Of a stretch of DNA of 64,000 nucleotides, positions 45,895 to 63,411 are shown piece after piece. The DNA lies in the NCBI GenBank assembly GCA_963714085.1, contig OY970229.1, forward strand, positions 800,001 through 864,000, given 5' to 3'. This DNA is from an uncultured Candidatus Micrarchaeota archaeon. Lineage in GTDB: Archaea > Micrarchaeota > Micrarchaeia > Anstonellales > Bilamarchaeaceae. Within the stretch, counting starts at the first letter, position 1, and the number at the start of each line of letters is the position of its first letter. A model generated the notes under the pieces. It was not told where the DNA came from, ran no database searches, and saw only the letters and a list, made by a program, of their open reading frames with translations. The translations under genes and the position numbers were made by a program.

Positions 45895-48800
45895 ATGGCT
45901 AAAGGATACCGGGGCATGCTACCAATATTGCTATTTCCCCTATTCCTAAGCATACTTTCGCTCACGCAACTAGTTAACATAAGCCATATGGCCGGGCTCA
46001 ATGATGACTTCTCGAACCTCGTGCTCCAGGTCGTGAACGAGAATGGGACCACCACGGTCCCTTACACCATAGTCGGCATGCAGGATGGCCAGTGGGCCAT
46101 GGTCAATGCCACGCTGCCAGGCGCCAATGGAACGCTTGTCGCGTCCGCGTATCCTGATTACTCCTATAACGGCACTGGAGCAGGAAACCAGACCGCAAAT
46201 GCAGGGAGCGCCGCGATTGGGCAGGCCGCTTATTCTTCGGGGTACGCGTATAACGAAACGCTCTCCAATGCTAGCGCCCCGGAAAACGGCAGCGGCGTGC
46301 CGTCCGGTTATGAGAATATAAACGATTTCATGAACCAGTCGAATATCAGCGTCAATCAGACAATCAATGGCTCTTCGGGTTATGTGAATGCCGGTCCGTC
46401 CCTCAATACCACGAACGCCAGCGTGAATGGCAGCGGCGTGCCGTCCGGCTACGAGGATATCGGCGTTTTCATGAACCAGTCGAATATCACCGTCAATCAG
46501 ACGCGCAATATTTCTTCGGGATATATCGATGTCGGCGCGTTCCTCAATGCCACCAACCAAGCCGGTTCATTCGAAGCCATCAGCGCCGGAACCCACGAAC
46601 GCGGGTCGACGAAGCTCATCCAGCTCTCCTACAACGGCTCCCAAGCCGAGATGAGCGCGGACGCCTATGACATGCTAGCGGACAACGCCAGCGTAAGGCT
46701 TATCGTGGAGGGAGGAAGCGGTTTTTCGCGGTACGGGCGGAATATCAGCACCGTAGAAAACATCCCCTCGCGGGGGCTGCATGTGGTCACGGTAGACAAG
46801 CGGTCCCTTGCATTGCTGCTTCAGGCAGGGGCCAGCAAGATATATCTGGACACCCCGGTGCAGGCGCTGCTCAACGACAGCATACCGCTGATACGCGCGG
46901 ACGAGGCTGCGGAGGATTTCAACCTCTCGGGGCAGGGAATCGCCGTCTGCCTCCTGGACACCGGCGTGGACTACAACGAGTCCCAGTTCGGGGGCCAGGT
47001 CCTCCAGGGCTACGATTTGTTGGATAACGTTTCCGGCGCCATGGACGACAACGGCCACGGCACGCTCATGGCGTCCATCATCCATTCCATCGCCCCTGGA
47101 GCGACCATCGTACCAGTCAAGGTGCTGGATTCCACCGGACACGGCTATTCGTCGGACATAATACAGGGCATCGACTACTGCAGGCAGGTTGGGCAGAACG
47201 TCAGGATAATATCCATGAGCTTCGGGGGCGGGAACTTCACGGATTACTGCGACTCCGACCCGCTGGCCATGGCGGTGGAGGACGCATACGACGCGGGGAT
47301 ACTTCCGGTCGCGTCGTCGGGCAACGACGGAGGCGCGGCGATCACCCTGCCGGCCTGCGCCATGAACGCGACCGCCGTGGCCTCCACATCTGGTTCGGAT
47401 TTGATATCCTCCTTCTCCAGCATGAACGGCATGGTGGACCTCCTGGCGCCGGGCGAGGGCATAACCGCGGAAGGATTGGGCGGCCCTCAGACCCGGTCCG
47501 GCACCTCCATCAGCGCGGCGGACGTCTCCGGCGCGGCAGCCCTGCTCGTGGAAAGCAATTCGACACTGGAACCGGTCGACATAACCCGGATATTCAGGAC
47601 GACCGGCATCCCCATCTCGTATGAGGGCGTGACATACCCGCGCATCGACGTGCTCAACGCGGTGATGGACAACGCCACCGGCAATCCCGTGATTCCTCCG
47701 GTAAACGAATCCAACGGGACCGGAGTCGACAACTTCAGCATCGCAATCTGGACCAGCGCCTCTTTCGACAGGTGCATGAACATAACCATAATCAACGTCA
47801 GTAGCTCCAGCCTGGCGAATTTCCCGGCATTGATCAACGTGGCGTATAACACCGACATGCAGTCGAATTACTCCGACCTCAGGTTCTACAGCGCGGGATG
47901 CAACAATGGCGGAACACTCCTGCCCTACGAGATAGAAAACTACACTGCGGCTAACGCCATCGTTTGGGTGGGCATTCCGACCATGAACGCGGCGAACACC
48001 ACGATTTCAGTCTATTACAAGAACAACACCGCGGTGAGCTCGGGGCAGAACGCCACGGGCGTATGGGACGCCAACTTCAGAGGCGTATGGCACCTGAACC
48101 AAAATCCGGCAGGGGCCGCGCCGCAGATGAAGGACAGCACTTCCAATGGCAATAACGGAACCGCCGCAGGGCTCACTGCCGCGAATCAGGTGAGCGGGCA
48201 GATTGACGGAAGCCTGAATTTCACCGGGAGCAGCACCACGACAGTAGTGGTGCCGAACAGCACGTCTACCGATATCACCGGGAACATTCTGACCATCTCC
48301 GCGTGGATAAAGCCGGTCAACCAGACAGGAGGCAACAGCTATGTCTTCCAGAGAGGTAACAACACCGGAGTCGAGCAGTACGCCCTTGTATTCAGCCGCA
48401 CGAACACCAGTAGCGGTGCCGGCAGCATGGGCGCTGTCGTCAACAATACCATCGTCGCAAGAAGCGCCAACAACAGCATAACCATAAACAACTGGGCTTA
48501 TGTCGCATTCGTGTGCAATGGCACCGCGGTCACTGATTACCTGAACGGAGTGGTCGTGAACACGACGAATTACAATACGACCCTGACCTCGGTTTTCGAA
48601 TCCAACATCAGTTTCGGCATAAAGTGGCCGAACAGCAACGCCTACCTAGGCGGGATAGACGAGGTGGAGCTTTCCAACGCGGCCAGGAGCGCGCAGTGGA
48701 TAAACCAGAGCTACCAGATGCAGTACAACAACAGCAAGTGGATCGTCTTCGGAGCCGCGCAGACCAGGCCCACCACAGGCGTTGCTCTCAACAGCCCTGC

Positions 48801-51800
48801 GAACGGCTCCCTCCTCAACTCCACCAGCGTAAATTTCAACTGGACGTGCACCGGCAGCTCGAGTTTGTTCACGGCCAACCTCACCATTGACGGCGTGCTC
48901 AACGTGAGCGCCATCAACTCCACGAACAACACCGCGACCAACTACAGCGTCAGCGGATTGGCCCTGAGCAACCACACCTGGAGCATAACGTGCATAGACC
49001 CGAACAACAACAGCATAGCGTCCGCGACATGGAACTTCACGCTGCAGAACACCTGCCCGGTGATAAACGCGAGCGGCACCACGACCATGACCGGCAATTA
49101 CGTCGGTGCTCCCAACAACGCTTCACCCCTAGCCAACTTCACCTGTGTGAAGATAGCGGCCTCCAACGTCACCCTCAACTGCAACGGGTTCAGCATCACG
49201 AACAACGGCACCAACGGGACTACCTATGGCATCCTGCTCAACGGCTCTATCAGCAACGTCACCATAGAGAACTGTCCCGGAGTATCCAATTACACCTACG
49301 GCATCTACGTCTATAATTCCAACCACAGCAACATCTTCAACAGCACGGCATTCAACAACTCCTTTGTCGGTATGGACTTCAATTCGAGCTCCAATGACAC
49401 GATTACCAACTCCACCGGATCGGCCACCTCAGGCTTCGGATTATACCTCAATGCGACCACCAACAGCCAATTCGTCAACGTCACAGGCTCGGCCATCTCA
49501 GGCTACGGCATCTACATCCAATCAAGCGCCAACTTCACAATCACCAACTCAACCGGATCGTCCAGCTCCCAGGCCGGCATCGTCCTGGCCAACAGCTCCA
49601 ATGAGACTATCACCAACTGCATCGGAACTTCCAACTCCAGCTACGGCATCTATCTGACAATCAACTCCAACGGCACAATCACCAATTCCTCGGGGAATTC
49701 CAATACGAGCTATGGCTTCTTCCTCAACCAGAGCAACAGCAACAACCTCACGGGCGACAATGCATCTGGCAGTTTCTTCGGTTTCTACCTGGTCAACAGC
49801 AGCTCAAATCAGTTCACCAACAGCTTCGCATACAACGACACAAACGGTTTCGTCATCAATTCCAGCTCCAACAGCAATAACTTCACGAATAACAGCGCGT
49901 ATGGCAATTCCAATATCGGCTTGCTCATATACGACTCCAACCTTACAACTGTGCAGGGCATGCACTTCTACAACAACAGCCCTGACCTGGAGGTGCAGGA
50001 TGATTTCGGCTCCCAGATCGTATTGAACCTCACTAGTATGGTCTTCGACAACCGCTTGGGGAACTACCAGAATTACACCAACCTGAGCATCAACGATACC
50101 GTGAATAATAGCGAGACGTACTCGATCAAATGGACGACAAATTCATCGGCTCTGCCGTCCGGTTATTCCAGCTTTGCGCAGGAATTCGTGAATATAAGTG
50201 TGATCAGCGGCGCTCCGTCTATAAGCTCCGTCACCTGGAGCTGGCTCGCGAGCCAGCTCAGCGGCTACAACCAGAGCTGGTTCGGGTTATTCGACTATAA
50301 TGGCACCTGGCAGCTCCTGAACAACTCTCCGAATACGACGACCCAGACGCTGTCGATCACGAACCTCACAGCGAGCGGCATATACGGCATCCTGGAGCTC
50401 AACAGCACTCCCAACGTGACCTTGAAGGCCCCGGGCAACAACTCGATCTTGAATATCTCTTCCGCAAACTTCAATTTCACCGCGGTGGACAGCTTCTCTT
50501 CCGCAATGAACTGCTCTCTTTATGTCGATGGGACGCTGAAGGGGACGAACACGTCCGTCAGCAACAATACCGCCACCAACATCACCGTTGGCAGCATCGC
50601 TGACGGAAAACACACCTGGTACGTCCAATGCGAGAATGCCGTCAACAACACCGGGACTTCCGCCACCTGGAACTTCACGGTGCAGAACAACTGCCCTGTG
50701 ATAAATGCGAGCGGCACAGAGACCATGGTAACAAATTTCGTAGGCGCTCCCAACAATGCTTCGCCCCTCACCAACTTCACCTGTGTGAAGATAGCGGCCT
50801 CCAACGTCACCCTCAACTGCAACGGGTTCAGCATCACGAACAACGGCACCAACGGGACTACCTATGGCATCCTGCTCAACGGCTCTATCAGCAACGTCAC
50901 CATAGAGAACTGTCCCGGAGTATCCAATTACACCTACGGCATCTACGTCTATAATTCCAACCACAGCAACATCTTCAACAGCACGGCATTCAACAACTCC
51001 TTTGTCGGTATGGACTTCAATTCGAGCTCCAATGACACGATTACCAACTCCACCGGATCGGCCACCTCAGGCTTCGGATTATACCTCAATGCGACCACCA
51101 ACAGCCAATTCGTCAACGTCACAGGCTCGGCCATCTCAGGCTACGGCATCTACATCCAATCAAGCGCCAACTTCACAATCACCAACTCAACCGGATCGTC
51201 CAGCTCCCAGGCCGGCATCGTCCTGGCCAACAGCTCCAATGAGACTATCACCAACTGCATCGGAACTTCCAACTCCAGCTACGGCATCTATCTGACAATC
51301 AACTCCAACGGCACAATCACCAATTCCTCGGGGAATTCCAATACGAGCTATGGCTTCTTCCTCAACCAGAGCAACAGCAACAACCTCACGGGCGACAATG
51401 CATCTGGCAGTTTCTTCGGTTTCTACCTGGTCAACAGCAGCTCAAATCAGTTCACCAACAGCTTCGCATACAACGACACAAACGGTTTCGTCATCAATTC
51501 CAGCTCCAACAGCAATAACTTCACGAATAACAGCGCGTATGGCAATTCCAATATCGGCTTGCTCATATACGACTCCAACCTTACAACTGTGCAGGGCATG
51601 CACTTCTACAACAACAGCCCTGATCTGGAGGCACAAGATGACCAGGGCTCCTCGTTCATATTGAACCTCTCGAGCATGATCTTCGACAGCCCGCTGGACA
51701 ACTACCAGAATTACACCAACCTGAGCATCAATGACACCGTGAACAGTGGCGAGACATATTCTATCAAATGGACGACCACCCAGACCGCGCCTCCATACAC

Positions 51801-54800
51801 CTCGTTCGCCCAGACTTACGTGAACATAAGCACCATAGCCGGTGCGGTGTCCATAAACAGCATCGTCTGGAGCTGGATCAGCGGACAGCTCACTGGATAC
51901 AACAGCAGCCTGTTCCAGCTCTGGAACTACAACGCCACCGGCTGGACAATGCTGAACAGCACTCCTAACACCGTAGGGAACACCCTCGGCCTCTTCAACC
52001 TTGCTCCTCAGAACATATATGCCATACTCCAAGTCGCCAAATGCCCAATCATCAACTCTAGCGGTGTCTACAAACAGGGCGGGAACTACATCGGCGCTCC
52101 TAACAACGCTTCGCCGCTAACGAATTTCACCTGCGTAGAGATAGCCGCATCCAATGTCACTTTCGACTGCAACGGATTCACCATAACCAACAATGCTACT
52201 GCGGGGACGACCTACGGCATACTGGTCAATGGTTCGCTGAAAAACGTGACAGTCCAGAACTGCCCGGGGATATCGAATTACACCTACGGCATCTACGTCT
52301 ATCAGTCCAACAACAGCATTATAACCAACAGCACCGCCTACAATAACACTAATTGTGGCTTGTCCATCTACTCCGGCTCCAACAATAGCATCACCAACAG
52401 CATCGCCTACAACAATGCCCAGTACGGTTTCTGTCTCATCACCAGTTCCGGCAACAACATAACCAACAGTACCGCCTACAATAACACTAATTATGGCTTC
52501 GACGTCTCCTCCAGCTCCAACGATACCATCGCCAACAGCATCGCCTACAATAACCCTAGCAGTGGCTTCTCCATCTACTCCGGCTCCAACAATAGCATCA
52601 CTAACAACTCCGTCTACAATAACGCCTATGGTTTCCTCCTCTCCTCCACCTCCAACGATACCTTCACCAACAACACCGCCTACAGCAACCCCACTGGTTT
52701 CTACATCTACTCCAGCTCCAACAACACCTTCACCAACAACTCCGCCTACAGCAGTACGTATGGTTTCTTCCTCTCCACCAGCTCCAACAATAACATCTTA
52801 ACCAACAACTCCGCCTACAGCAGTACGTATGGTTTCTTCCTCTCCAACAGCTCCAACAGTACCATCACCAACAGCATCGCCTACAACAATACCCAGTATG
52901 GCTTCGACGTCTACTCCAGCTCCAACAACAATACCCTGATCAACAACAGCGCATACAACAACCCCAGTATCGGCTTGATGGTATACGACTCCAACCTTAC
53001 AGCGGTGCGGGGCATGCACTTCTACAACAACAGCCCTGACCTGGAGGTGCAGGATGACCAGGGCTCCTCGTTCATATTGAACCTCTCGAGCATAGTCTTC
53101 GACAACCCCTTGGGGAACTACCAGAACTACACCAACCTGAGCATCAATGACACCGTGAACAACAGCGAGACATATTCCATCAACTGGACGACCAACCAGA
53201 CCGCGCCTCCATACACCTCTTTCGCCCAGACTTACGTGAACATAAGCACCATAGCCGGTGCGGTGTCAATAGACAGCATCGTCTGGAGCTGGACCAGCGG
53301 CCAGCTCACTGGATACAACAGCAGCCTGTTCGAGCTCTGGGGTTACAACTCAAGTGGATGGACCATGCTGAACAGCACGCCGAACACCGCCGCTAATATA
53401 CTGGGCATGACCAATTTCAACCCAGGAGCTATCTACGGCATCCTCCAGTATGATGGTAACTGCCCGCTCATAAACAAAAGCCAGGTTTATACCGAAAACA
53501 CAAGTTACACAGGAGCTCCGAATGTCGTCTCCCAGCTGGGCGGCACTGCTTGCGTGGAGATAACCGCATCCAATGTCACTTTCAACTGCAATGGCTATAA
53601 CATCACGAACAAAGGCGTAGGAGGGACGACTTATGGCATCGTGCTCAATGGCTCCCTCACTAATGTCACGGTGGAGAACTGCCCCGGGGTATCCAATTAC
53701 AGCTACGGCATCTATGTCTATAAGTCCAACAACAGCGTTATAATCAACAGCACCGCTTACAACAATACCCAGTCTGGCTTCGACATATCCTCCAGCTCCA
53801 ACAACAATACCATAACCAACAGCAGCGCCTACAATAACACCTATTATGGCTTTTACCTCGAATCCAGCTTCAACAATACCATAACCAACAGCACTGCCCA
53901 CAATAACCCTAGTAGCGGCTTCGCCATGTACTCGGGCTCCAACAATACCCTTACCAACGACTCCGCCTACAATAACGCCTATGGTTTCCTCCTCGCTTAT
54001 ACCTCCAACAATACCATAGCCAACAGCAGCACCTACAATAACACCAATTATGGCTTCTACCTCGGCTTCAGCTCCAACAATACCATAGCCAACAGCACTG
54101 CCCACAATAACCCTAGCAGCTTCACCATCATCTCGAGCTCCAACAACATCTTAACCAGCAACACCGCTTACAACAATTCCCTTTATGGTTTCGACATCTA
54201 CTCCAGCTCCAACAATACCATAGCCAACAGCACTGCCTACAGCAATTCCTATTATGGCTTCTACCTCGAGTCCGGCTCCAACAACAATACCATAACCAAC
54301 AGCACTGCCTACAACGATACATTTTCTGGCTTCTACCTCGGCTCCAGCTCCAACAACAGCATCCTCATCAACAATACCGCATACAGCAACCCCAGTACCG
54401 GCTTGATGGTATACGACTCCAACCAGACCACGGTGCGGGGCATGCACTTCTACAACAACAGCCCTGACCTGGAGGTGCAGGATGATTTCGGCTCCCAGAT
54501 CGTATTGAACCTCACTAGTATGGTCTTCGACAACCGCTTGGGGAACTACCAGAATTACACCAACCTGAGCATCAACGATACCGTGAATAATAGCGAGACG
54601 TACTCGATCAAATGGACGACAAATTCATCGGCTCTGCCGTCCGGTTATTCCAGCTTTGCGCAGGAATTCGTGAATATAAGTGTGATCAGCGGCGCTCCTG
54701 TCATTGATTATACCGCATGGAGCTGGCTCGCGAGCCAGCTCGGCGGCTACAACCAGAGCTGGTTCGGGTTATTCGACTATAATGGCACCTGGCAGCTTCT

Positions 54801-57800
54801 GAACAACTCTCCGAACACGGCGGCCCAGACGCTGTCGATCACGAACCTCACATCGAGCGCCATATACGGCATCCTGGAGCTCAACAGCACCCCGAAAGTG
54901 ACCTTGAACGCCCCGGGCAACAACTCGACATTGAATTCATCTTCCGTGACCTTCAACTTCACCGCAGTGGACAATATCTCAACGACAATGAACTGCTCTA
55001 TCTACCTTGACGGAGTGTTCAATCAGACCAACACTTCAACGAGCAATAACACTGCGACGACCTTCATGATCAACAATGTAACCGATGGCAATCACACTTG
55101 GTACGTCGCATGCGAGAACGGCGCGAACAACACGGGAACGTCTGCGACCTGGAACTTCACGATGCATAATAACTGCCCGGTCGTCAGCGCGAGCGGCACT
55201 TATACCCAGAATTCGAACTACGTCGGGGCGCCCAACACCGTCGGAGGAGGCACGGCTTGCGTGGAAATCACGGCGTCCAACGTGGTCTTCAACTGCAACG
55301 GGTACAACATCACCAATAACGGGACCGGGGGCACGACCTACGGTGTCATTGTGTCCACCGGCGGGTCGCTCACCAACGTCACGGTGAAGAACTGCCCCAG
55401 CATATCGAGCTACAGCCACGGAGTCTATCTGTCCGCTGACAACAGCAGCACGATAAGCAATGTGACGGCCCATAACAATTCCCAAGACGATTTCGCCCTT
55501 CCATCTTCGACCTTGGTGACCTTCGTCTTTGACACCTCCTACGGCTCGCCATACGGCTTCCACCTGATTACCAGCACGAACAATAACTTCACGGACAACA
55601 CCGCCCACGATGCCTCGACAGCCGCCTTCTTCCTGGATGGCGACGGTTCCAACTACAACAATTTCACCAGCAACAGCGTTTATAATTCAGCGGACGGCTT
55701 CTACTTATTAGGCGGTTATGCAGGCAGCTCCGATAACAACTTCATCAACGACAGCGCCTACAACAACTCGCGGGCGGGCTTCGATTTTTATACCGCCGCC
55801 TTCAACAATCTGACGGGCAATAACGCCTCGGGCAACGCGTACGGCTTCAGGCTGGCCTACAGCCCCGGAAACCAGCTCGCGAACAACACCGCGTCTTACG
55901 ACGCATATGGTTTCGTCATCAATACCAGCTCCGAGGAGAACATCCTCACCAACGACAGCGCATACGGCAATTCCATCGCCGGCTTGCTGGTGAACAACTC
56001 CGGCCCGACACTGACGGCGGTGGGCATGCACTTCTTCAACAACAGCCTTGACCTGATGGCGCAGGCTGCTAGCGTATTGAATTTCACCGGCATCGTATTC
56101 GACAATCCACTGGGGAACTACCAGAATTACACCAACCTGAGCATCAACGACAGCGTGGACAGCGGCGAAGCATATTCCATCAACTGGTCCATGAACACCT
56201 CGACCCTGCCAACCGGTTACATCAGCTTCGCGCAGGAGTTCGTGAACATAACCATGACCAGCGGCAGTCCATCCATAGACTCCGTCACCTGGAGCTGGAT
56301 CGCGAGCCAGCTCAGCGGCTACAACCAGAGTTGGTTCGGGCTATTCGACTATAACGGGACCTGGCAGCTCCTGAACAACTCTCCGAATACGACGACCCAG
56401 ACGCTGTCGATCACGAACCTCACAGCGAGCGGCATATACGGCATCCTGGAGCTCAACAGCACTCCCAACGTGACCTTGAACGCCCCGGGCAACAACTCGA
56501 TTTCAAGCACCTCTTCTGTAACGTTCAACTTCACCGCGGTGGACAATATCTCGACTACGATGAACTGCTCCATCTACCTCGATGGGGTGTTCAACCAGAC
56601 CAATACCTCGACGGGCAATAACACTGCCACGACTTTCACAATCAATGGCATAAGCGATGGTAAGCACACCTGGTACGTCCAATGCGAGAATGCCGCCAAC
56701 AATACCGGGACTTCCGCCATCTGGAACTTCACTGTGCAGAGCAACTGCCCGGTGGTAACCACGTCCGGGACATACACCCAATCTACCAATTACATAGGAG
56801 CGCCGAACAATGCCACTCCACTCAACAATTTCACCTGCGTGAAGATAGCCGCATCCAACGTCATTTTCAACTGCAACAGATTCAATATCACGAACAATGG
56901 CACCAACGGAACGACCTACGGCATGCTCGTCAACGGCTCCCTGAAGAACGTGACGATAGTGAACTGCCCGGGCGTATCAGGCTATACCACCGGCATCTAC
57001 GTCTACCAGTCGAACAGCACCAACATCACGAACGACGGCGCCTACAACAACACCTACGGCATCCAGCTCACAGGCTCGTCGGGCGTGAACATCTCCCTGA
57101 GCAATTTCACGAACAACTCCAACACCGGGCTGGCCATAGATAGCCTGAGCGGCTCCAACACCTTCGCTTCCGACAGGTTCTGCTTCAACAATGTGAGCGA
57201 CATCAACAACAGCGGCTCCTCCAACAGCGGCTCGTTGGATGCTTGCGGTTACTGGAGCAACTGGAACGAAAACAGTCATGCTGGCTGCGCCTACAGCTGC
57301 TCGCTGGTGTGGCAGGAATTCTTCGGCAACATCACCGGGAAGCAGTTCCTGGCCCCGAACCACAGCCAGATTTTCTATTCATGGATATGGAATGGTACGA
57401 GCGGTATGATCTTCGCCTTCAACAGCGGCGTCAGCATCAACTGGGCGAACATCACCGCCCTAGGCAAGAACACCACCGGGGGAAGCTCGACCACCGACTT
57501 CACGACTCTTGATACGCTGCTCAGCATGAACGGAAGCCCTGACAACATCACGGGTCTCTACAGCAACGGAAGCGCTCCGAAGGCGACCGCCAACATGACG
57601 ATATATGGCAGGCCCGTGACGTACGTGCCGCTCGCGAACTCATCCTCGGCGTCCTCGAATTCCAGCTCGACGACGGGTATCCTGTGGGACGATTCCACCA
57701 ATACCGGAGGCCATTTCGCCAGCGGGAGCAACGTCGTCTTCGTGACCCAGGTGAACCAGACCAGCTCCAGCCAGTATGACATCAGGGTCCCGAGCGGCCT

Positions 57801-57855
57801 GAGCACCTATGGCAGCGGGTCGGGCACGGTCCAGTTCTGGGTGGAGATGGACTAA
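45895..57855 (+). CDS. Giant (3986 aa) secreted protein: S8 subtilase, DUF2341-like, LamG, repeated Ig-like and NosD/CASH beta-helix modules, C-terminal putative filament-subunit domain
   Basis: Signal peptide; LDTG, GHGT, SSGN, SGTS; SDLRF..LPYEIE; ISAWIK..WAYVA..GGIDEV; N/S/T-rich beta-helix repeats; no C-terminal TM. Confidence 0.85.
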   Translation: MAKGYRGMLPILLFPLFLSILSLTQLVNISHMAGLNDDFSNLVLQVVNENGTTTVPYTIVGMQDGQWAMVNATLPGANGTLVASAYPDYSYNGTGAGNQTANAGSAAIGQAAYSSGYAYNETLSNASAPENGSGVPSGYENINDFMNQSNISVNQTINGSSGYVNAGPSLNTTNASVNGSGVPSGYEDIGVFMNQSNITVNQTRNISSGYIDVGAFLNATNQAGSFEAISAGTHERGSTKLIQLSYNGSQAEMSADAYDMLADNASVRLIVEGGSGFSRYGRNISTVENIPSRGLHVVTVDKRSLALLLQAGASKIYLDTPVQALLNDSIPLIRADEAAEDFNLSGQGIAVCLLDTGVDYNESQFGGQVLQGYDLLDNVSGAMDDNGHGTLMASIIHSIAPGATIVPVKVLDSTGHGYSSDIIQGIDYCRQVGQNVRIISMSFGGGNFTDYCDSDPLAMAVEDAYDAGILPVASSGNDGGAAITLPACAMNATAVASTSGSDLISSFSSMNGMVDLLAPGEGITAEGLGGPQTRSGTSISAADVSGAAALLVESNSTLEPVDITRIFRTTGIPISYEGVTYPRIDVLNAVMDNATGNPVIPPVNESNGTGVDNFSIAIWTSASFDRCMNITIINVSSSSLANFPALINVAYNTDMQSNYSDLRFYSAGCNNGGTLLPYEIENYTAANAIVWVGIPTMNAANTTISVYYKNNTAVSSGQNATGVWDANFRGVWHLNQNPAGAAPQMKDSTSNGNNGTAAGLTAANQVSGQIDGSLNFTGSSTTTVVVPNSTSTDITGNILTISAWIKPVNQTGGNSYVFQRGNNTGVEQYALVFSRTNTSSGAGSMGAVVNNTIVARSANNSITINNWAYVAFVCNGTAVTDYLNGVVVNTTNYNTTLTSVFESNISFGIKWPNSNAYLGGIDEVELSNAARSAQWINQSYQMQYNNSKWIVFGAAQTRPTTGVALNSPANGSLLNSTSVNFNWTCTGSSSLFTANLTIDGVLNVSAINSTNNTATNYSVSGLALSNHTWSITCIDPNNNSIASATWNFTLQNTCPVINASGTTTMTGNYVGAPNNASPLANFTCVKIAASNVTLNCNGFSITNNGTNGTTYGILLNGSISNVTIENCPGVSNYTYGIYVYNSNHSNIFNSTAFNNSFVGMDFNSSSNDTITNSTGSATSGFGLYLNATTNSQFVNVTGSAISGYGIYIQSSANFTITNSTGSSSSQAGIVLANSSNETITNCIGTSNSSYGIYLTINSNGTITNSSGNSNTSYGFFLNQSNSNNLTGDNASGSFFGFYLVNSSSNQFTNSFAYNDTNGFVINSSSNSNNFTNNSAYGNSNIGLLIYDSNLTTVQGMHFYNNSPDLEVQDDFGSQIVLNLTSMVFDNRLGNYQNYTNLSINDTVNNSETYSIKWTTNSSALPSGYSSFAQEFVNISVISGAPSISSVTWSWLASQLSGYNQSWFGLFDYNGTWQLLNNSPNTTTQTLSITNLTASGIYGILELNSTPNVTLKAPGNNSILNISSANFNFTAVDSFSSAMNCSLYVDGTLKGTNTSVSNNTATNITVGSIADGKHTWYVQCENAVNNTGTSATWNFTVQNNCPVINASGTETMVTNFVGAPNNASPLTNFTCVKIAASNVTLNCNGFSITNNGTNGTTYGILLNGSISNVTIENCPGVSNYTYGIYVYNSNHSNIFNSTAFNNSFVGMDFNSSSNDTITNSTGSATSGFGLYLNATTNSQFVNVTGSAISGYGIYIQSSANFTITNSTGSSSSQAGIVLANSSNETITNCIGTSNSSYGIYLTINSNGTITNSSGNSNTSYGFFLNQSNSNNLTGDNASGSFFGFYLVNSSSNQFTNSFAYNDTNGFVINSSSNSNNFTNNSAYGNSNIGLLIYDSNLTTVQGMHFYNNSPDLEAQDDQGSSFILNLSSMIFDSPLDNYQNYTNLSINDTVNSGETYSIKWTTTQTAPPYTSFAQTYVNISTIAGAVSINSIVWSWISGQLTGYNSSLFQLWNYNATGWTMLNSTPNTVGNTLGLFNLAPQNIYAILQVAKCPIINSSGVYKQGGNYIGAPNNASPLTNFTCVEIAASNVTFDCNGFTITNNATAGTTYGILVNGSLKNVTVQNCPGISNYTYGIYVYQSNNSIITNSTAYNNTNCGLSIYSGSNNSITNSIAYNNAQYGFCLITSSGNNITNSTAYNNTNYGFDVSSSSNDTIANSIAYNNPSSGFSIYSGSNNSITNNSVYNNAYGFLLSSTSNDTFTNNTAYSNPTGFYIYSSSNNTFTNNSAYSSTYGFFLSTSSNNNILTNNSAYSSTYGFFLSNSSNSTITNSIAYNNTQYGFDVYSSSNNNTLINNSAYNNPSIGLMVYDSNLTAVRGMHFYNNSPDLEVQDDQGSSFILNLSSIVFDNPLGNYQNYTNLSINDTVNNSETYSINWTTNQTAPPYTSFAQTYVNISTIAGAVSIDSIVWSWTSGQLTGYNSSLFELWGYNSSGWTMLNSTPNTAANILGMTNFNPGAIYGILQYDGNCPLINKSQVYTENTSYTGAPNVVSQLGGTACVEITASNVTFNCNGYNITNKGVGGTTYGIVLNGSLTNVTVENCPGVSNYSYGIYVYKSNNSVIINSTAYNNTQSGFDISSSSNNNTITNSSAYNNTYYGFYLESSFNNTITNSTAHNNPSSGFAMYSGSNNTLTNDSAYNNAYGFLLAYTSNNTIANSSTYNNTNYGFYLGFSSNNTIANSTAHNNPSSFTIISSSNNILTSNTAYNNSLYGFDIYSSSNNTIANSTAYSNSYYGFYLESGSNNNTITNSTAYNDTFSGFYLGSSSNNSILINNTAYSNPSTGLMVYDSNQTTVRGMHFYNNSPDLEVQDDFGSQIVLNLTSMVFDNRLGNYQNYTNLSINDTVNNSETYSIKWTTNSSALPSGYSSFAQEFVNISVISGAPVIDYTAWSWLASQLGGYNQSWFGLFDYNGTWQLLNNSPNTAAQTLSITNLTSSAIYGILELNSTPKVTLNAPGNNSTLNSSSVTFNFTAVDNISTTMNCSIYLDGVFNQTNTSTSNNTATTFMINNVTDGNHTWYVACENGANNTGTSATWNFTMHNNCPVVSASGTYTQNSNYVGAPNTVGGGTACVEITASNVVFNCNGYNITNNGTGGTTYGVIVSTGGSLTNVTVKNCPSISSYSHGVYLSADNSSTISNVTAHNNSQDDFALPSSTLVTFVFDTSYGSPYGFHLITSTNNNFTDNTAHDASTAAFFLDGDGSNYNNFTSNSVYNSADGFYLLGGYAGSSDNNFINDSAYNNSRAGFDFYTAAFNNLTGNNASGNAYGFRLAYSPGNQLANNTASYDAYGFVINTSSEENILTNDSAYGNSIAGLLVNNSGPTLTAVGMHFFNNSLDLMAQAASVLNFTGIVFDNPLGNYQNYTNLSINDSVDSGEAYSINWSMNTSTLPTGYISFAQEFVNITMTSGSPSIDSVTWSWIASQLSGYNQSWFGLFDYNGTWQLLNNSPNTTTQTLSITNLTASGIYGILELNSTPNVTLNAPGNNSISSTSSVTFNFTAVDNISTTMNCSIYLDGVFNQTNTSTGNNTATTFTINGISDGKHTWYVQCENAANNTGTSAIWNFTVQSNCPVVTTSGTYTQSTNYIGAPNNATPLNNFTCVKIAASNVIFNCNRFNITNNGTNGTTYGMLVNGSLKNVTIVNCPGVSGYTTGIYVYQSNSTNITNDGAYNNTYGIQLTGSSGVNISLSNFTNNSNTGLAIDSLSGSNTFASDRFCFNNVSDINNSGSSNSGSLDACGYWSNWNENSHAGCAYSCSLVWQEFFGNITGKQFLAPNHSQIFYSWIWNGTSGMIFAFNSGVSINWANITALGKNTTGGSSTTDFTTLDTLLSMNGSPDNITGLYSNGSAPKATANMTIYGRPVTYVPLANSSSASSNSSSTTGILWDDSTNTGGHFASGSNVVFVTQVNQTSSSQYDIRVPSGLSTYGSGSGTVQFWVEMD
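49133..51623 (+). repeat. ~850-bp apparently identical intragenic duplication (~49133-49985 and ~50771-51623, offset 1638)
   Basis: Identical shadow ORFs at constant offset (49311/50949, 49364/51002); further shared blocks 49956-50216 = 54438-54698. Confidence 0.9.
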
Positions 57856-58002: not shown

Positions 58003-60111
58003 ATGGGGCGTGAACTCGTCTTACTGCTGCTGGTGCTCTCCGCCAGCCACGCCCAAGTCATCAGCAGCGGCGGCAACGTAACACAGCTCGATTTCCTGCA
58101 AGCCAACTTCTCCGACCATTGGGACGGGCTTTACGGGCAGGTGGTCATCGGCGCGGAAACGAACTTCTCCTACGTCGTGATCGGAGGCGCGATAACCCAG
58201 ATGGACCTCATCGTCCAGGAGCCACCGTGCACCGTCGCATCGCAATCCCTGAACGTCATCGCGGTCAACGCCACCGACCTGGCGCTTCCCCTGGAGCCCG
58301 GGAACGTGTCCGTCCTGGACAGCATCATAACCGGTGAGGACAATGGGAGCGCCACCTTCACCCAGAGCAGCTCGTTCTGGCTCTCCTACGGCAATTTTTC
58401 CAACGTGCCCACACTCTACACGCTCCCGGGCAACCTGACCTCCGGCGATTTCCGGGAGGGCTACCTGAACGACGCGGGCGGGGACCTCGTGTTCGTGGCG
58501 GACGTGGTTAACGACAGACCTGATTGGAACGGCACGAGCGCCGATTACCAGATGATACTGCCGCAGATCGGGACCAATTACACGCTGTTCGTGGATGACG
58601 TCTATTCCTGCGTGGCGCCCCCGGGCCCCATTCCGAACCCCATTCCGGGCCCTGCCCCAATCATCATCGTGCACAGGCTGTACATACTCCCGCCCCAGAT
58701 GTTCACGGCGCCGAGCGGCGGCACGTTCGATGCGGACTTCACGGTCGAGAACACCGGCTCCTTCGCCGAGAACGGCATAGGCGTCTCCGTGAGCTGCCCG
58801 GCGGCGTTCTCATGCGGATCTGGTTCCATCCCTCACCTGGGTGTCGGACGCGAGGGCAGCGTCTCTCTCCCCATAACAGTCGACGGGGCGGGCGAATACG
58901 TGCTCACCGTGTGCGCGAACGATACCGATACTTCCACGTGCAGGGAGTTCATCGTGAACGTGGGGCCGCAATGCAACGACAGCGGCGACTGCGGGGCCGG
59001 AAGCTTCTGCCAGAGCGGCGTATGCGAACCCAAGAAGAAGCCCGGGGAGCGATGCAACGACAGCGGCCAGTGCCTGAGCGGGGTCTGCAACGGAACCGTG
59101 TGCGGGTACTGCGCCGCGGACTCCGACTGCCCCTCTGAGCAGGCCTGCTCTGGCGGCTCCTGCGTCAATGTCCAGTGCCCCTGCGGCAGGGTGAGCGACC
59201 ATGTCTGCGTCAGCTACGCCTGCTGCGCGGACACGGATTGCGGCAGCTGCCAGATATGCTCCGGGAACTCGTGCATGGACAAGAAATTCAGCATCCTGAT
59301 AGCGACCGGCGAGCAGACGGGGATGGAAGAAGGCCAGCCCGTGCGCGTGCAGATACTGGGCAACGATGGCAAGGGAGTCCCAGGGGCCAGGGTTTTCACG
59401 AGCGTTTCAGAGGTGTATACTGATGCGAACGGCTACGCCACGATACCTGTCCCCTATGACGGGATAGTGTACGCGTCCGCCGACTGCTACCCGAACAAGG
59501 GCCTGATGCTCAGCGTCGTGAAAAAAGGCCTCTTCGTCGTTCCGCAGGAGATCCTGGTGGGCGTGGACGCTTCTATCCAGCTCGTGGACAGCCGCGGGCT
59601 GCCCATAGCCGGGGCCACCGTGGAGGTGGACGGCACGATGCTGACCACGGATTCCAAGGGCGTGTTCCACTACACCTTCGATTCCCCTGGCAAGAAAAGC
59701 GTGACTGCCCAGGCCGCGGGGTATGACATACCCGGCATCACCCTGAACGTGGTCCAAGCGACTTCCTGCGGCTACCCCATCGTCTTCGGCCTCCTGTCGT
59801 TCAGCATCATCGGCATCTGGCAGCTTTGGCTCCTCAGCATATTGCTCGCGGTAGCCAATTTCTTGCTGCTGAGGCATCTGATGGGCCGGAAAGCCAGGGG
59901 ATTGCCGCTCACCAGCACGCTGCTACAGCTCGCCTATGCCGGCGTACCGCTCCTCATCGCGGTCATCCCTGGCACTGGTTTCGGCATATGCCTGATGTCG
60001 AACGTCGTGACGCTGCAGCTAATCGCAGAGCTGGCGCTGATAGCATGGAAGAAGCTGGTTAAAGGTAAACCAGACGTAGTAGGGAAAACGGAACAGAAGA
60101 AGAAAAGATGA
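58003..60111 (+). CDS. Membrane-anchored surface protein: N-terminal putative filament-subunit domain, Pro linker, Ig/CARDB-like, Cys-rich repeats, C-terminal TM helices
   Basis: SD AGGTG before ATG 58003; GGNVTQL..WDGLYGQV; C..D.DC repeats; hydrophobic C-terminus with Lys tail. Confidence 0.8.
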   Translation: MGRELVLLLLVLSASHAQVISSGGNVTQLDFLQANFSDHWDGLYGQVVIGAETNFSYVVIGGAITQMDLIVQEPPCTVASQSLNVIAVNATDLALPLEPGNVSVLDSIITGEDNGSATFTQSSSFWLSYGNFSNVPTLYTLPGNLTSGDFREGYLNDAGGDLVFVADVVNDRPDWNGTSADYQMILPQIGTNYTLFVDDVYSCVAPPGPIPNPIPGPAPIIIVHRLYILPPQMFTAPSGGTFDADFTVENTGSFAENGIGVSVSCPAAFSCGSGSIPHLGVGREGSVSLPITVDGAGEYVLTVCANDTDTSTCREFIVNVGPQCNDSGDCGAGSFCQSGVCEPKKKPGERCNDSGQCLSGVCNGTVCGYCAADSDCPSEQACSGGSCVNVQCPCGRVSDHVCVSYACCADTDCGSCQICSGNSCMDKKFSILIATGEQTGMEEGQPVRVQILGNDGKGVPGARVFTSVSEVYTDANGYATIPVPYDGIVYASADCYPNKGLMLSVVKKGLFVVPQEILVGVDASIQLVDSRGLPIAGATVEVDGTMLTTDSKGVFHYTFDSPGKKSVTAQAAGYDIPGITLNVVQATSCGYPIVFGLLSFSIIGIWQLWLLSILLAVANFLLLRHLMGRKARGLPLTSTLLQLAYAGVPLLIAVIPGTGFGICLMSNVVTLQLIAELALIAWKKLVKGKPDVVGKTEQKKKR

Positions 60112-60113
60112 GG

Positions 60114-61799
60114 TTACTTCTTCTTTTCCTTGGTCTCCTTGCTCTTATTGAAGAAGAGATAAAGCGCCACCAGGATTACCAGGATGATGAATACCGAGCC
60201 CACCAGTACCGGGTCTATGCCCGCGGCCGCGGCAGCAGCCGCTTCTGGAACGTATTCCTTCTGCACTGTCTTGTCAAGGAACGCCTGCCTGGCGCCGTAG
60301 TCGGCGCTGGCGGTTATGTTCACGCCGTCAGTCGCGATCCCTGGGAATTTCACCATCTTGCCCTGCGCAGGCGCGAGGGTGTAGGTGTTGCCGTCGTTTA
60401 TGGTCGTAGACGTCCCGTTGGCCACTATCGTCGCGCTGGCTGTGAAGTAATCAGTCACGTCCCCGGTGTTGGTGAAGGTCACGTAAAGGTCGTCTGTGAC
60501 CTGGTCCTTGTTGAACCCGCTGATGCCCAATTGCGAGGTGTCGTTGAACTGCACGTTCCCCGCGTCGCGCATGGTCTGGATCCCGTTCTCGAACGAGAGC
60601 TTGGACGAGCCGAAGTAGGTGGTTATGTTGGCGGTGACTTTGCCGCTTTGTATCGTGACAGGGTAGGCCACCCCGAATACCTGCCCGGCTTCGACCGGGA
60701 ATGGCTGCTGGTCGCCCACCGTCGCGGTGTAAGCGCCGTCAGCATAGACCATGATGCTTGATTTCACGTACTCCAGCGCGTTACCGGTGTTATTGTAGGT
60801 CACTTCGAGCTCCTGGCTCTGGGTGTCGTATTGGACGGCGTCTATGTCAAGGCCGAGTGTGGGACCGGGAAGCGGGAATAGCTCCACCTGGCCCATGCCT
60901 CCGGACCCGGTGGTCTGCCCGAATTTCACGAAAACGCTGAGCTTGTCGGATCCGAGATCCTTGTTGATCGAGGTCTTGAGGTTATATGCGGTCTGTGCGT
61001 ATGATTGGTCCACGAGCATGGCGGCGCTGATCTGCCCTCCAGAGACCTTCTTCTCCAGGTATTGGTATACGGAGGTCGGAACGACCGGGCTTATGAGGAG
61101 CACCGGGTCGTCGCCCGCGGCTATGGTGGAATCGAACGCGTTCCCGTCCGAGAGTATTATCTGGTTCTTCGAGGGGTTCATGGCGAAATACATGTCGTCC
61201 AGCTGCATGTTGTCTGCGAACTTGTCGCCGTTGTTTATCTGCGTGTAGGTGAGCCCTTGTGAATTCAGCGAGTTTATGACCGCCTGGTCCACGTAACCGT
61301 AGATGAGTACGCCGTTCGCGCTTTGGTTCTTCATGAAACTGGCTGCGGAATCAGAGTCGCTCTGGTCCACGAAGAGCAGGTACATCCCGTTCAGCTTCGC
61401 ATAGGCGAGGGCCGAGACGGTGTTGTAGCCGTAGACCGGGTCCACGATGACGAATTTCCTGGCGCCGCTGAGAGCGGCCAGGTTCATGTTGGTCTGCATC
61501 GGGTCGCCTGACTGGATGGTCTGGACCGTGTCGCCCTGGCTGGTCAGGCCGTTGGCCAAGCCCGCTACTATGGGCGTGGTCGTGGACTGGACCAGGAGGA
61601 CGTTCTGGTTGCCGCCCACCTGGGCGTAGATGGACTGGGCTGTGGATGCCGGGGTGGCGAAGATTATGGTGTCGTTCTTGATTGCGGCGTAATAGATGCC
61701 CGAGACCAAGTCCCTGCCATCGAATGAGTTCACCACTGTGATGCTGAAGCACTGAGCGCAGAGTAACACTAGCAGACAAGCCAAGAAGAGTTTTTTCAT
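60114..61799 (-). CDS. Surface protein with cell-wall-binding-2-like alpha/beta repeats, Ig-like domains and C-terminal TM anchor
   Basis: Signal peptide; VVNSFDGRDLVSG/IVDPVYGYNTVSA repeats; C-terminal TM plus KKKK. Confidence 0.65.
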   Translation of the reverse strand: MKKLFLACLLVLLCAQCFSITVVNSFDGRDLVSGIYYAAIKNDTIIFATPASTAQSIYAQVGGNQNVLLVQSTTTPIVAGLANGLTSQGDTVQTIQSGDPMQTNMNLAALSGARKFVIVDPVYGYNTVSALAYAKLNGMYLLFVDQSDSDSAASFMKNQSANGVLIYGYVDQAVINSLNSQGLTYTQINNGDKFADNMQLDDMYFAMNPSKNQIILSDGNAFDSTIAAGDDPVLLISPVVPTSVYQYLEKKVSGGQISAAMLVDQSYAQTAYNLKTSINKDLGSDKLSVFVKFGQTTGSGGMGQVELFPLPGPTLGLDIDAVQYDTQSQELEVTYNNTGNALEYVKSSIMVYADGAYTATVGDQQPFPVEAGQVFGVAYPVTIQSGKVTANITTYFGSSKLSFENGIQTMRDAGNVQFNDTSQLGISGFNKDQVTDDLYVTFTNTGDVTDYFTASATIVANGTSTTINDGNTYTLAPAQGKMVKFPGIATDGVNITASADYGARQAFLDKTVQKEYVPEAAAAAAAGIDPVLVGSVFIILVILVALYLFFNKSKETKEKKK

Positions 61800-61869
61800 G
61801 CGCTAATTTGCCACGGAAGGGTTTATAAATAAAAGGTTTGCTAATATATTTAACAGAGAAGGTGCGACC

Positions 61870-62544
61870 ATGAAACTAAGTATTGGATTGATTGCGATCC
61901 TGCTCGGGATTGGCCTGGCGTTCGCCGTGACCCCCGTAGGGAACTGGACGGTGATTAGTACTAGCGCCTACACCTCGACGACCAATGCGAGCGTGCTGAC
62001 CCAGGGCGGCAATGTCACGAACCTGGAACTGAGCTCGAATGTCTCCACCATTAAGTGGGCTGGTTACTGGGGCAACGTCAGTAGTGCGTTGGTGCTTTCT
62101 CCGGGTGCGGGGCAGGGTAACCTCTATAGCTGGGTCTGGAACGCATCAAGTGGCGGCGAAGTATGCGCAGTGGCAGCTGCGACCGGATTCAGCTGGGCGA
62201 GTATCGCGGCTACCACTACGAGCGCCGTGGACACGATGTGGGGATTCAACGCGTCCGACCCGGATAGCGCGGCTAATACATTGATGGACAGCAGCTGCGC
62301 CATGACCATAGGTGGCGTACCAATCACCACAGTAGGGAACTTCACCGGCTTGGACACCAGCTTCGAGACCTGCGCAGTGGATGACGGTGCGACCGCGGCG
62401 AAGAGCGATTACGCGTTCTGCGTGAACATCACGGACAACGGCACGCTGTTCAACAACCAGACCGGGAACTACGAGCTCATCGTGCCAACTCCGAACAGCA
62501 TGGTCACGACCGAGACGGACTATTTCTGGTTTGACCTCCGTTAG
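61870..62544 (+). CDS. Small secreted protein, putative major filament subunit A
   Basis: Strong TATA TTTATAAA, SD, signal peptide ending AFA, GGNVT..WAGYWGNV, ends YFWFDLR. Confidence 0.8.
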   Translation: MKLSIGLIAILLGIGLAFAVTPVGNWTVISTSAYTSTTNASVLTQGGNVTNLELSSNVSTIKWAGYWGNVSSALVLSPGAGQGNLYSWVWNASSGGEVCAVAAATGFSWASIAATTTSAVDTMWGFNASDPDSAANTLMDSSCAMTIGGVPITTVGNFTGLDTSFETCAVDDGATAAKSDYAFCVNITDNGTLFNNQTGNYELIVPTPNSMVTTETDYFWFDLR

Positions 62545-62546
62545 AG

Positions 62547-62582
62547 CTGGCACCAAGGTGCCGGTTTATTTTTTCTTTTATC
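62547..62582 (+). terminator. Hairpin plus T-tract terminator (copy 1)
   Basis: CTGGCACC AA GGTGCCGG followed by TTTATTTTTTCTTTT. Confidence 0.7.
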
Positions 62583-62701
62583 AAACTTTTCCTTTCAGAA
62601 GAGGACGATGCCCTCCGTGCGCTGATTTCCAGTGAAGCCACAGAAAGATTTATAAATAAAATGTAGGTAAAAGCTAATAAGGAGTAAAAAAAGGTGCGAC
62701 C

Positions 62702-63373
62702 ATGAAACTAAGTATTGGATTGATTGCGATCCTGCTCGGGATTGGCCTGGCGTTCGCCATAACCCCTGCAGGGAACTGGACTGTGCTCAGCACGAGTTAT
62801 TACACCTCGACGACCAACGCGAGCGTGTTGACTCAGGGCGGCAATGTCACGAACCTGGCGTTGAGCTCGAACACCACCACCACCAAGTGGGCTGGTTATT
62901 GGGGCAATGTCACTGGCGGACTGCTGCTTGCTCCGAGTACCGGGACGTATACATTTTACACTTGGGCCTGGAACGCGTCTAAAGGCGGCGAAGTGTGCTC
63001 TGTTGCCGCTGCAACCGGGTTCAACTGGGTGAATGTCGCGGCCACGACGGTGGGCGCCGTGGACACGATGTGGGGATTCACCACGACCGACCCTGACAGC
63101 GCGACCAACACGCTGGGGCAGAGCAACTGCGCCATGACAATTGGTGGCGTGACGGTCAGCACAGTGGGCAACTACAGCGGATTGGGCACATTCGAGACCT
63201 GCGCAATTGATGATGGCGCGACAGCGGCGAAGAGCGACTTCGCGTTCTGCGTGAACATCTCAACCAATGGCACGCTGTTCAACAACCAGACCGGGAACTA
63301 CCAGCTCCTCATGCCGACCAACAACACGGTGGGCGCGACAGAGACTGACTATTTCTGGCTTGACTTGAAGTAG
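62702..63373 (+). CDS. Small secreted protein, putative major filament subunit B (paralogue of 61870-62544)
   Basis: Identical signal peptide, colinear mature sequence, four conserved Cys, ends YFWLDLK. Confidence 0.8.
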   Translation: MKLSIGLIAILLGIGLAFAITPAGNWTVLSTSYYTSTTNASVLTQGGNVTNLALSSNTTTTKWAGYWGNVTGGLLLAPSTGTYTFYTWAWNASKGGEVCSVAAATGFNWVNVAATTVGAVDTMWGFTTTDPDSATNTLGQSNCAMTIGGVTVSTVGNYSGLGTFETCAIDDGATAAKSDFAFCVNISTNGTLFNNQTGNYQLLMPTNNTVGATETDYFWLDLK

Positions 63374-63375
63374 AG

Positions 63376-63411
63376 CTGGCACCAAGGTGCCGGTTTATTT
63401 TTTCTTTTATC
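63376..63411 (+). terminator. Hairpin plus T-tract terminator (copy 2, identical to copy 1)
   Basis: Same 41-nt 3' sequence as 62542-62582. Confidence 0.7.

Follow-up and report, generated by a model that had tools for sequence, protein, structure and literature searches.

The window analysed here, a stretch of 64,000 nucleotides (nt) from an uncultured Candidatus Micrarchaeota archaeon of the Bilamarchaeaceae (GenBank assembly GCA_963714085.1, contig OY970229.1, positions 800,001 to 864,000 of the forward strand), carries a gene module that, judging from profiles and structure models, probably represents a new family of donor-strand fibre or tether. Genes of four types make up the module: a gene for a giant secreted protein of 3986 amino acids (aa), proposed as distal cargo or tip (45895..57855, plus strand); a gene for a 702-aa membrane protein, proposed as base or terminator (58003..60111, plus strand); a gene for a 561-aa membrane-anchored protein (60114..61799, minus strand); and genes for two small paralogues, subunit A of 224 aa (61870..62544, plus strand), proposed as the major polymerising subunit, and subunit B of 223 aa (62702..63373, plus strand). 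We read them as the parts of a Sec-exported, heavily N-glycosylated surface fibre or tether, held together by donor strands and unrelated to type IV pili, and we put the probability of this reading at roughly 0.55. The product may be a filament of some length, a tether that stays short, or a coat. A preliminary description of the same DNA had suggested a filament in which one domain is shared by tip-like, shaft-like and anchor-like proteins.

The homology of this domain among the four proteins is the basis of the argument. A profile hidden Markov model (HMM) of the family, A1, was built from 48 members and searched, with filters off, against the 15,461 six-frame open reading frames (ORFs) of the 1.57-Mb genome, which is a single contig. 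Exactly four ORFs were found at E <= 0.01, namely the two small genes, the giant and the 702-aa protein, as the preliminary description had proposed. The small genes A and B both match at E 1e-94 and their products are 75% identical over 224 aa. The giant matches at E 2.2e-7, with HMM positions 63-222 on its final ~180 residues (nt ~57310-57852); when its last 300 aa are scanned alone, the same HMM positions are matched at E 8e-9. The 702-aa protein matches at E 4.8e-7, with HMM positions 37-70 and 129-205 directly behind its signal peptide (58051..58611, plus strand), so that a profile of the small paralogues does reach both large proteins. Profile-profile comparison with hhalign points the same way: the small family aligns with 11 giant-type C-termini at 99.0% (E 7.7e-18, columns 61-225 only) and with 15 anchor-type N-termini at 98.6% (E 6.8e-16, columns 40-224, GGNVT included), and the anchor type aligns with the tip type at 91% (E 1e-6). 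By these profiles, all four copies of the domain are homologous. Neither small protein matched a Pfam or NCBIfam family at E <= 0.1, and the nearest ESM Atlas clusters of the subunit and of the 561-aa protein are called 'hypothetical protein' and carry no Pfam families; one of ten clusters is named, again as 'hypothetical protein', from a Bilamarchaeaceae metagenome-assembled genome (MAG). The subunit family appears to be undescribed in the literature on archaeal and DPANN (Diapherotrites, Parvarchaeota, Aenigmarchaeota, Nanoarchaeota, Nanohaloarchaeota) surface proteins, donor-strand fibres, surface layers (S-layers) and CWB2 domains, a search from which supplements were excluded, and these might list the genes as hypothetical surface proteins. 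No such protein is mentioned in the accessible part of the paper on the Nanobdella surface.

A second line of evidence is the predicted contact of the small subunit with itself. Subunit A consists of a Sec-type signal, an N-terminal extension with GGNVT at residues 46-50 and a beta-rich core (60-224); the signal peptide and the GGNVT segment of subunit B are the same. A complex prediction was made for a homo-oligomer of three copies with a user-supplied alignment, and its median score of 0.59 (best of three controls 0.00) has to be read with the reservation that three copies and an own alignment depart from the calibration of the tool. In that calibration the score mark is reached by 20 of 30 same-chain pairs and, among 23 structures solved as single chains, by 1. 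Agreement between the runs extends to at least 94% of the contacts, with a predicted local distance difference test score (pLDDT) of at least 80 for the partner. Residues 30-60 of one copy touch residues 59-90 and 201-221 of the next, where the strands W63-W90 and Y201-F219 are located. In the contact pairs 66/51, 70/54, 74/58 and 76/60 the indices rise together, which suggests a parallel pairing, out of reach for a short linker inside a single chain. Furthermore, the acceptor strands of the scored copy itself are mostly absent from the contact list, which would fit an open chain and not a ring. The self-contact of the small subunit is thereby predicted to run head to tail, through the extension that bears GGNVT.

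Sequence conservation is concentrated in the same place. Mature positions that are at least 90% conserved number 33, and 23 of them fall in the predicted interface, which comprises 84 of 204 residues (hypergeometric P 3e-4, for positions that are not independent). The best conserved segment is 44-62, with a mean top-residue frequency of 0.79 vs 0.60 mid-domain, and it is unplaced in the monomer model. G47, N48 and T60 are invariant, while T44, G46, V49, T50, N57 and S59 are conserved to at least 90%.

The two large proteins appear to carry complementary versions of the domain. In the giant, a signal peptide is followed by an S8 subtilisin-like protease domain (~345-573), DUF2341, a ConA-like lectin domain, repeated Big_13 domains and many beta-helix/NosD repeats; its family matches include PF00082 (E 2.3e-35, scanned alone) and Laminin_G_3 (E 7e-15). 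The protein contains 333 N-x-S/T sequons. Its C-terminal copy of the subunit domain (57310..57852, plus strand) is confined to the acceptor part, with a Cys-rich stretch in place of the GGNVT segment, and its sole hydrophobic stretch is at residues 8-29. Hence the statement of the preliminary description that this copy lacks GGNVT and that the giant has no membrane anchor is supported by the start of the match at HMM position 63 and by the hydrophobicity of the protein. The 702-aa protein runs from a signal peptide through the subunit domain, beginning at GGNVT, to a weak CARDB-like match, a Cys-rich and CarboxypepD_reg-like part and C-terminal hydrophobic helices; it was likewise said to keep GGNVT and to end in membrane helices, and both features are recovered. 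Its GGNVT lies ~5 residues behind the predicted signal cleavage site, and its hydrophobic stretches are at 613-648 and 666-701 (numbering of the 722-aa frame that starts with TTG). The likely start is the ATG at 58003, which is preceded by AGGTG.

Some peculiarities of the giant gene at the DNA level can be added. Between window positions 49005 and 56996 (plus strand), stretches of 300 nt recur every 1350-1638 and 4482 nt with 63-95% identity, and these long diverged repeats might make the assembly of the gene fragile. A periodicity of 66-69 nt corresponds to the turns of the beta-helix, and the GC skew is strongly negative along the whole gene.

The distribution of the strand over these architectures is repeated in other genomes. 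Fifty-three loci were fetched with the family alignment; because many contigs are cut, the locus counts are minimum counts. A stand-alone small subunit is present in 41 of the 53. Ten loci encode a large protein with a C-terminal copy that begins at HMM position 58-61, and in all ten the GGNVT strand is missing, a conserved Cys-rich stretch being found instead. Fifteen loci have an N-terminal, strand-bearing copy directly behind a signal peptide (an automatic rule counted 16 anchor-type loci, of which L037 was removed on inspection, being a 328-aa acceptor-only protein), and in 14 of the 53 the C-terminal part of the 702-aa protein has an orthologue. Small, anchor-type and tip-type genes are found together in L005, L013 and L016, and in L002 and L003 small and tip-type genes are accompanied by an orthologue of the anchor's C-terminal part. 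The motif TEGGNVT.L is nearly identical in small subunits and anchors, with ~21% identity in the rest of the domain, which suggests one common binding site for both. The polarity from tip over subunit to anchor that the preliminary description had put forward is thus consistent with the acceptor-only giants, the strand-first anchors and the three loci with the full triad of genes, and it is less easily reconciled with the commonest fused form of the domain, to be treated below. As a whole, the subunit family numbers 1,221 cluster representatives when the threshold is E <= 0.001 and 902 when it is E <= 1e-10; most belong to DPANN archaea, and Methanosarcinales account for some. The suspicion that the organism is DPANN-like was correct, its relatives being labelled Micrarchaeota or related names.

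The export signal of the subunits looks like one for Sec and signal peptidase I. In the alignment, a hydrophobic stretch starts right after M-K and closes in a nearly invariant A-x-A (A19 at least 90% conserved), which is followed by a polar region; cleavage of subunit A is probably after AFA19. No conserved [KR]-[GA] site is seen in the subunit alignment and the model has a helix at residues 2-17 only. These features agree with Sec-exported subunits of a non-type-IV kind, as had been proposed, and a reading as type IV pilin or archaellin was rejected because the alignment does not have the features of a class III signal peptide. Subunits A and B each contain 11 N-glycosylation sequons, a density of 4.9 per 100 aa vs 1.04 in the long ORFs of the genome.

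The 561-aa protein, overlooked in the preliminary description, is the partner most constantly found with the small subunit. An orthologue of it adjoins the small gene in 32 of the 41 loci that have one and is absent from all 12 that do not; in eight of the nine loci where no 561-aa orthologue adjoins, the small gene is at a contig end. Of 151 genomes sampled from the phylum, 35 contain the subunit family, 39 the 561-aa family and 33 both, the related genomes among them not being independent. The protein consists of a signal peptide, three CWB2-like alpha/beta repeats (~14-289), two beta-sandwiches (317-416 and 424-516), a membrane helix and a Lys-rich tail, and its model has a mean pLDDT of 91. 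The triad of repeats superposes on those of Clostridioides difficile SlpA, Cwp6 and Cwp8 with VIA-align Z scores of 19.0-19.9 and a root-mean-square deviation (rmsd) of 3.2-3.7 A over 261-265 residues, at 12-20% identity (best superposition: Z 19.9, rmsd 3.4 A, 264 aligned). A profile of the 561-aa family finds 7acx_B among the PDB chains (E 2.8e-4), and 5j72_A and 7acy_B are among the Foldseek matches listed for the triad. A Pfam scan of the protein at E <= 0.1 gave no CWB2 and two weak, unrelated families (KTSC and PLipase_C_C). By the structural comparisons, the N-terminal part consists of three tandem Rossmann-like CWB2 repeats in one unit. The tandem sandwiches are generic, of the immunoglobulin (Ig)/fibronectin type III-like kind (Z about 10), and RbmA is among the Foldseek matches listed. 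If the module is confirmed, the 561-aa protein would be, to our knowledge, an early case of a CWB2 triad that works in an archaeal envelope.

Taken together, these elements can be arranged into a working mechanism. The small subunits of ~200 aa would leave the cell through Sec, lose their signal peptide to signal peptidase I and receive N-glycans. The N-terminal extension of each (~30-60, with the invariant GGNVT) would then lie on the edge strands W63-W90 and Y201-F219 of its neighbour, giving an open head-to-tail chain, the length of which may be great or small. The giant protease/beta-helix protein would be placed at the distal end, since its acceptor-only C-terminal copy could sit only at the end with a free binding site. 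The last subunit would receive its strand from the 702-aa protein, by which the chain would also be held at the cell membrane; this protein begins with the strand and ends in membrane helices, and can therefore both plug the last subunit and anchor the chain. The 561-aa CWB2-triad protein would stand beside the base of the chain, probably helping in assembly or forming a collar that binds glycans. We infer this polarity relative to the cell from the positions of strand and helices.

Donor-strand fibres that are exported by Sec have been established in archaea, in the form of threads (PMC9715654), and in bacteria of the Candidate Phyla Radiation (CPR), in the form of Pam pili (PMC13278184). As far as the consulted part of the thread report goes, the thread of Sulfolobus acidocaldarius (Saci_0406) resembles the module in its export by Sec and signal peptidase I, its heavy N-glycosylation and its lack of an ATPase machinery, and also in having a small beta-rich subunit that donates its N-terminal tail to neighbours, as is proposed here (PMC9715654). 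An adjoining paralogue, Saci_0405, is one-sided with respect to donor and acceptor and is a putative cap (PMC9715654); its counterpart here would be the C-terminus of the giant, a 3986-aa protease and adhesin. Threads are reported from Crenarchaea (arCOG10215; PMC9715654), whereas the module is centred on DPANN archaea. At the level of sequence and fold, the thread and the subunit could not be connected: there was no relevant profile match at E <= 1 to a copy of the PDB that may or may not include the thread entry, and the thread is not among the Foldseek and VIA-align matches listed (best Z 3.1). Unlike the thread, the module has a dedicated membrane-integral anchor and a partner with a CWB2 triad.

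The logic of the module is also reminiscent of chaperone-usher pili. In these, the tip (FimH or PapG) consists of a passenger and an acceptor-only pilin domain, the rod is built from FimA or PapA with an N-terminal donor extension, and PapH is the terminator. An outline of the same logic is contained in the thread report (PMC9715654). The module would share with these pili an acceptor-only tip, a shaft with donor extensions and a terminal subunit by which the fibre is closed off and anchored. Their Ig-like pilins, however, gave no match to the subunit model above noise (Foldseek best E 0.65, VIA-align best Z 3.1). They use an outer-membrane usher, and the anchor of the module is an integral membrane protein. 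The archaeon presumably has one membrane and no outer membrane, so no usher would apply.

The Pam system comprises the pilins PamA and PamB, the tip PamT, a membrane-anchored, RbmA-like terminator PamR and the membrane-anchored chaperones PamC and PamD (PMC13278184). In the available portion of its description, it is similar to the module in belonging to an episymbiont with a small genome, in Sec export and in a predicted donor-strand exchange that requires no trans-envelope machine (PMC13278184). Further points of likeness are an acceptor-only tip, a terminator that plugs the last pilin by its N-terminal strand with its C-terminal helix in the membrane, and partners with two beta-domains anchored by a C-terminal helix (PMC13278184). 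By analogy with the Pam chaperones and terminator, and in view of the RbmA-like matches, a role of the 561-aa protein in assembly or as a collar seems plausible. Pam pilins are called exclusive to the CPR (PMC13278184) and the module is archaeal, the comparison being one by description. Unlike in Pam, the partner in the module carries a CWB2 triad and the tip is a giant protease/beta-helix protein. The triad itself, at residues ~14-289, shares its fold with those of C. difficile SlpA (the high-molecular-weight S-layer protein), Cwp6 and Cwp8, in a topology that is reversed with respect to these proteins: the triad is far N-terminal, and two Ig-like domains and a membrane helix come after it. 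A wall polymer would not be expected as the ligand of the triad in this archaeon.

TasA fibres, archaeal bundling pili (AbpA), cannulae (CanA) and Tat-fimbriae are other extracellular fibres, of Bacillus or of archaea, that rely on strand donation and do without ATPases (PMC9674648, PMC12337348, 10.1101/2024.12.30.630787, PMC11821415, each consulted in part). The small subunits do not match the TasA/camelysin family in Pfam or NCBIfam at E <= 0.1. Tat-fimbriae are exported by Tat, in contrast to the Sec-type subunits of the module.

Several observations weigh against a donor-strand fibre. One of them concerns the fused forms of the domain, which were counted among the best 150 of the 1,221 representatives. 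Here 97 are stand-alone (<= 300 aa) and 53 are large, with lengths of 350-5626 aa; without exception, the domain of the large ones, with its strand region, ends at most 5 residues from the C-terminus, and GGN[VIL][TS] is present in 46 of them. In this commonest form, which the preliminary description had missed, the strand is kept behind a large passenger, unlike in the tip adhesins FimH and PapG, and a pure scheme of tip, shaft and anchor fits it less neatly. The passengers that were sampled (beta-helix, ConA-like lectin, F5/8 type C) are adhesin-like, and the C-terminal placement throughout suggests that the domain serves large proteins of this type in general as a C-terminal attachment module. 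In addition, a PapD-like chaperone or an usher was not recognised by Pfam and NCBIfam among the four gene types of the module. The CWB2 triad of the partner could point to a sheet or to a glycan-bound coat instead of a fibre. Furthermore, conserved sequons at N48, N57 and N69 lie within residues 48-71 and may partly account for how well the N-terminal segment is conserved. Finally, the AlphaFold2 monomer of subunit A (48-row alignment; mean pLDDT 79.6) is mostly above 90 in residues 60-224 and below 50 in residues 20-57, so the beta core, modelled confidently without the strand, may be a complete fold. Donor-strand exchange as first conceived is backed by a prediction in one part, the head-to-tail contact through GGNVT, and the confidently modelled core leaves its other part, the 'incomplete sandwich', unsupported.

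Nor do known folds come to the aid of a fibre. A comparison with known pilins and S-layer proteins, recommended in the preliminary description, was run with Foldseek against the PDB: the best match of the subunit model was at E 0.65, with no pilin above noise. VIA-align against 48,161 representative chains found no solved fold either (best Z 3.1), and a family profile gave one chance-level match at E <= 1, a dehydrogenase, among all PDB chain sequences. The absence of a fold match to the subunit core does not prove that the fold is new.

As to the variants that keep the complete domain, the source genome has the acceptor-only large form and no other. Large proteins with a complete domain occur in L011, L015, L022-L025, L027, L031-L034, L036 and L039 (open frames of 551-1585 aa, some cut by contig ends), and 11 of these 13 loci have neither the small subunit nor the 561-aa gene. 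The small subunit together with its 561-aa partner is also seen outside DPANN, in L029, L030, L037, L040 and L053 (Methanosarcinaceae or Methanosarcinales MAGs), L052 (an Acidobacteriota MAG) and L049 (Ca. Makaraimicrobium). In Methanosarcinaceae, the small gene, the partner gene and the gene for an acceptor-only protein of 328-624 aa follow each other in the same direction. The bacterial labels of L052 and L049 may reflect gene transfer or mis-binned contigs.

The alternative that survives best, and which we nevertheless consider unlikely, is that the domain is a docking module and forms no filament. The proteins that carry it would attach singly or as a two-dimensional coat to the 561-aa and 702-aa proteins, and the result would be a pseudo-wall or display layer beneath or inside the S-layer. 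Such a role would agree with the 561-aa protein being the tightest partner (33 of the 35 genomes with the subunit, apart from the locus counts given above) and with the position of the domain at the extreme C-terminus of large adhesin-like proteins, where an anchoring module would be. The CWB2 triad anchors proteins to a wall polymer, and the 561-aa triad matches those of SlpA, Cwp6 and Cwp8 at the Z scores given above. SlpA forms the S-layer of C. difficile (PMC8881574, available in part). On the other hand, the contact predicted between subunits runs head to tail with open ends, which would lead to chains and not to a lattice. The acceptor-only and strand-first variants, moreover, suit a directional chain, and a plain docking domain needs neither of them.

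It could also be imagined that the domain is a non-polymerising, carbohydrate-binding or protective beta domain, that the small proteins are soluble or loosely bound, that the N-terminal stretch is a region for glycosylation or processing and that the oligomer is an artefact of modelling. The confident folding of the core alone speaks in its favour, as do the dense sequons (11 in 224 aa, against the background of 1.04), the presence of N48 and N57 in sequons and the single chain in 23 that reached the score mark, a proportion which according to the tool may be up to 19 in 100. We regard this explanation as improbable. G46, G47 and V49, which a sequon does not require, vary no more than the sequon residues themselves, and across many genomes the strand is absent from exactly one architectural class while another retains it. 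All three complex controls scored 0.00, and neither Foldseek nor VIA-align matched a lectin fold.

A signal peptide and a C-terminal membrane helix are typical of archaeal surface-layer glycoproteins, and the 561-aa protein has both next to an S-layer-like CWB2 triad. The genome contains no match to PF05123 (S_layer_N), and the promoter and terminator elements of both small genes look strong, so that the small and 561-aa proteins might be taken for the S-layer of the organism, in which the 561-aa protein would form an anchored stalk and the small protein a canopy. This reading was rejected because separate S-layer-type genes exist elsewhere in the genome, and we find it scarcely credible. Two paralogous ORFs of ~880-950 aa, at genome positions C1:1096443-1099289 and C1:1487239-1489872 and outside the window, are homologous to proteins of ~910-950 aa from three related genomes that match PF05123, one above and two below the cut-off. 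By this homology the two ORFs are likely to be the true S-layer genes. They belong to the ~100-kDa type reported for the S-layer protein of Micrarchaeum (10.1101/2021.04.28.441871). The module is also missing from 116 of the 151 sampled genomes of the phylum, and it occurs in MAGs of Methanosarcinaceae and Methanosarcinales. Methanosarcinales have a different, known S-layer protein. PF05123 itself is matched in 5 of the 151 genomes, which makes it too insensitive for judging whether S-layer marker and module replace each other.

The preferred reading of a donor-strand fibre or tether can be extended to a bolder one, which we hold tentatively and at less than even odds. The module would then stand for a widespread, undescribed class of archaeal fibres centred on DPANN, with a subunit fold that has no solved relatives, no ATPase or recognisable chaperone-usher pair, assembly by insertion of the GGNVT strand, a 702-aa terminator, a CWB2 collar that grips the glycans of the fibre and an interchangeable giant cargo (protease, beta-helix or lectin), serving as a device to display anchorless adhesins and to seize hosts. 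DPANN archaea live attached to hosts, and their attachment and the retention of giant anchorless surface proteins are largely unexplained. The module may offer a concrete answer, in that one and the same domain would act as shaft subunit, as C-terminal plug of the giant and as N-terminal plug of the anchor. If this is true, a further family is to be added to the short list of archaeal donor-strand fibres, and small cells would possess a device by which they display adhesins of several thousand residues that lack an anchor of their own, and by which they seize their hosts. The module also names proteins that can be sought in cryo-electron tomography maps of the contact sites between DPANN archaea and hosts.

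The small genes seem to have promoter and terminator elements of their own. The TATA-like box TTTATAAATAAAA lies at 61822..61834, in the gap between the 561-aa gene and small gene A, and a second copy of it is found at 62649-62661 upstream of small gene B, in both cases 36-53 nt upstream of the small gene. Directly 3' of small gene A there is a hairpin, CTGGCACC-AA-GGTGCCGG, with a T-run (62547..62579, plus strand), and an identical element is located 3' of small gene B (63376-63408). Read in this way from the letters, each small gene does have a candidate for the TATA box and for the terminator that had been attributed to it. The 561-aa gene and small gene A are divergent and the gap between them measures 70 bp (61800-61869). 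The box in it is near-palindromic; its distance from the start codon is 23-35 nt on the side of the 561-aa gene and 36-48 nt on that of the small gene. This single box could drive transcription in both directions, in which case the 561-aa transcript would be nearly leaderless.

The module is flanked by housekeeping genes and by a gene for a TnpB-like transposase, which are not conserved with it. Homologues of the five upstream flanking genes occur in 0 of the 53 loci and the two downstream ones recur in L001 only, so the seven flanking genes tested are placed outside the module. The transposase gene, at window positions 40152-41375 (minus strand), is a 407-aa ORF with OrfB_IS605, Cas12f1-like TNB and HTH_OrfB_IS605 domains; it is a TnpB-type gene for a transposon-associated nuclease, ~4.5 kb upstream of the module. 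Further away, Rfam predicts a tRNA of 100 nt at 15092-15191 (plus strand; 52.3 bits) that is not reported by ARAGORN, and its length suggests an intron-containing archaeal tRNA. The GC content falls to 0.475 between 26001 and 28000, against ~0.58 in the rest of the window.

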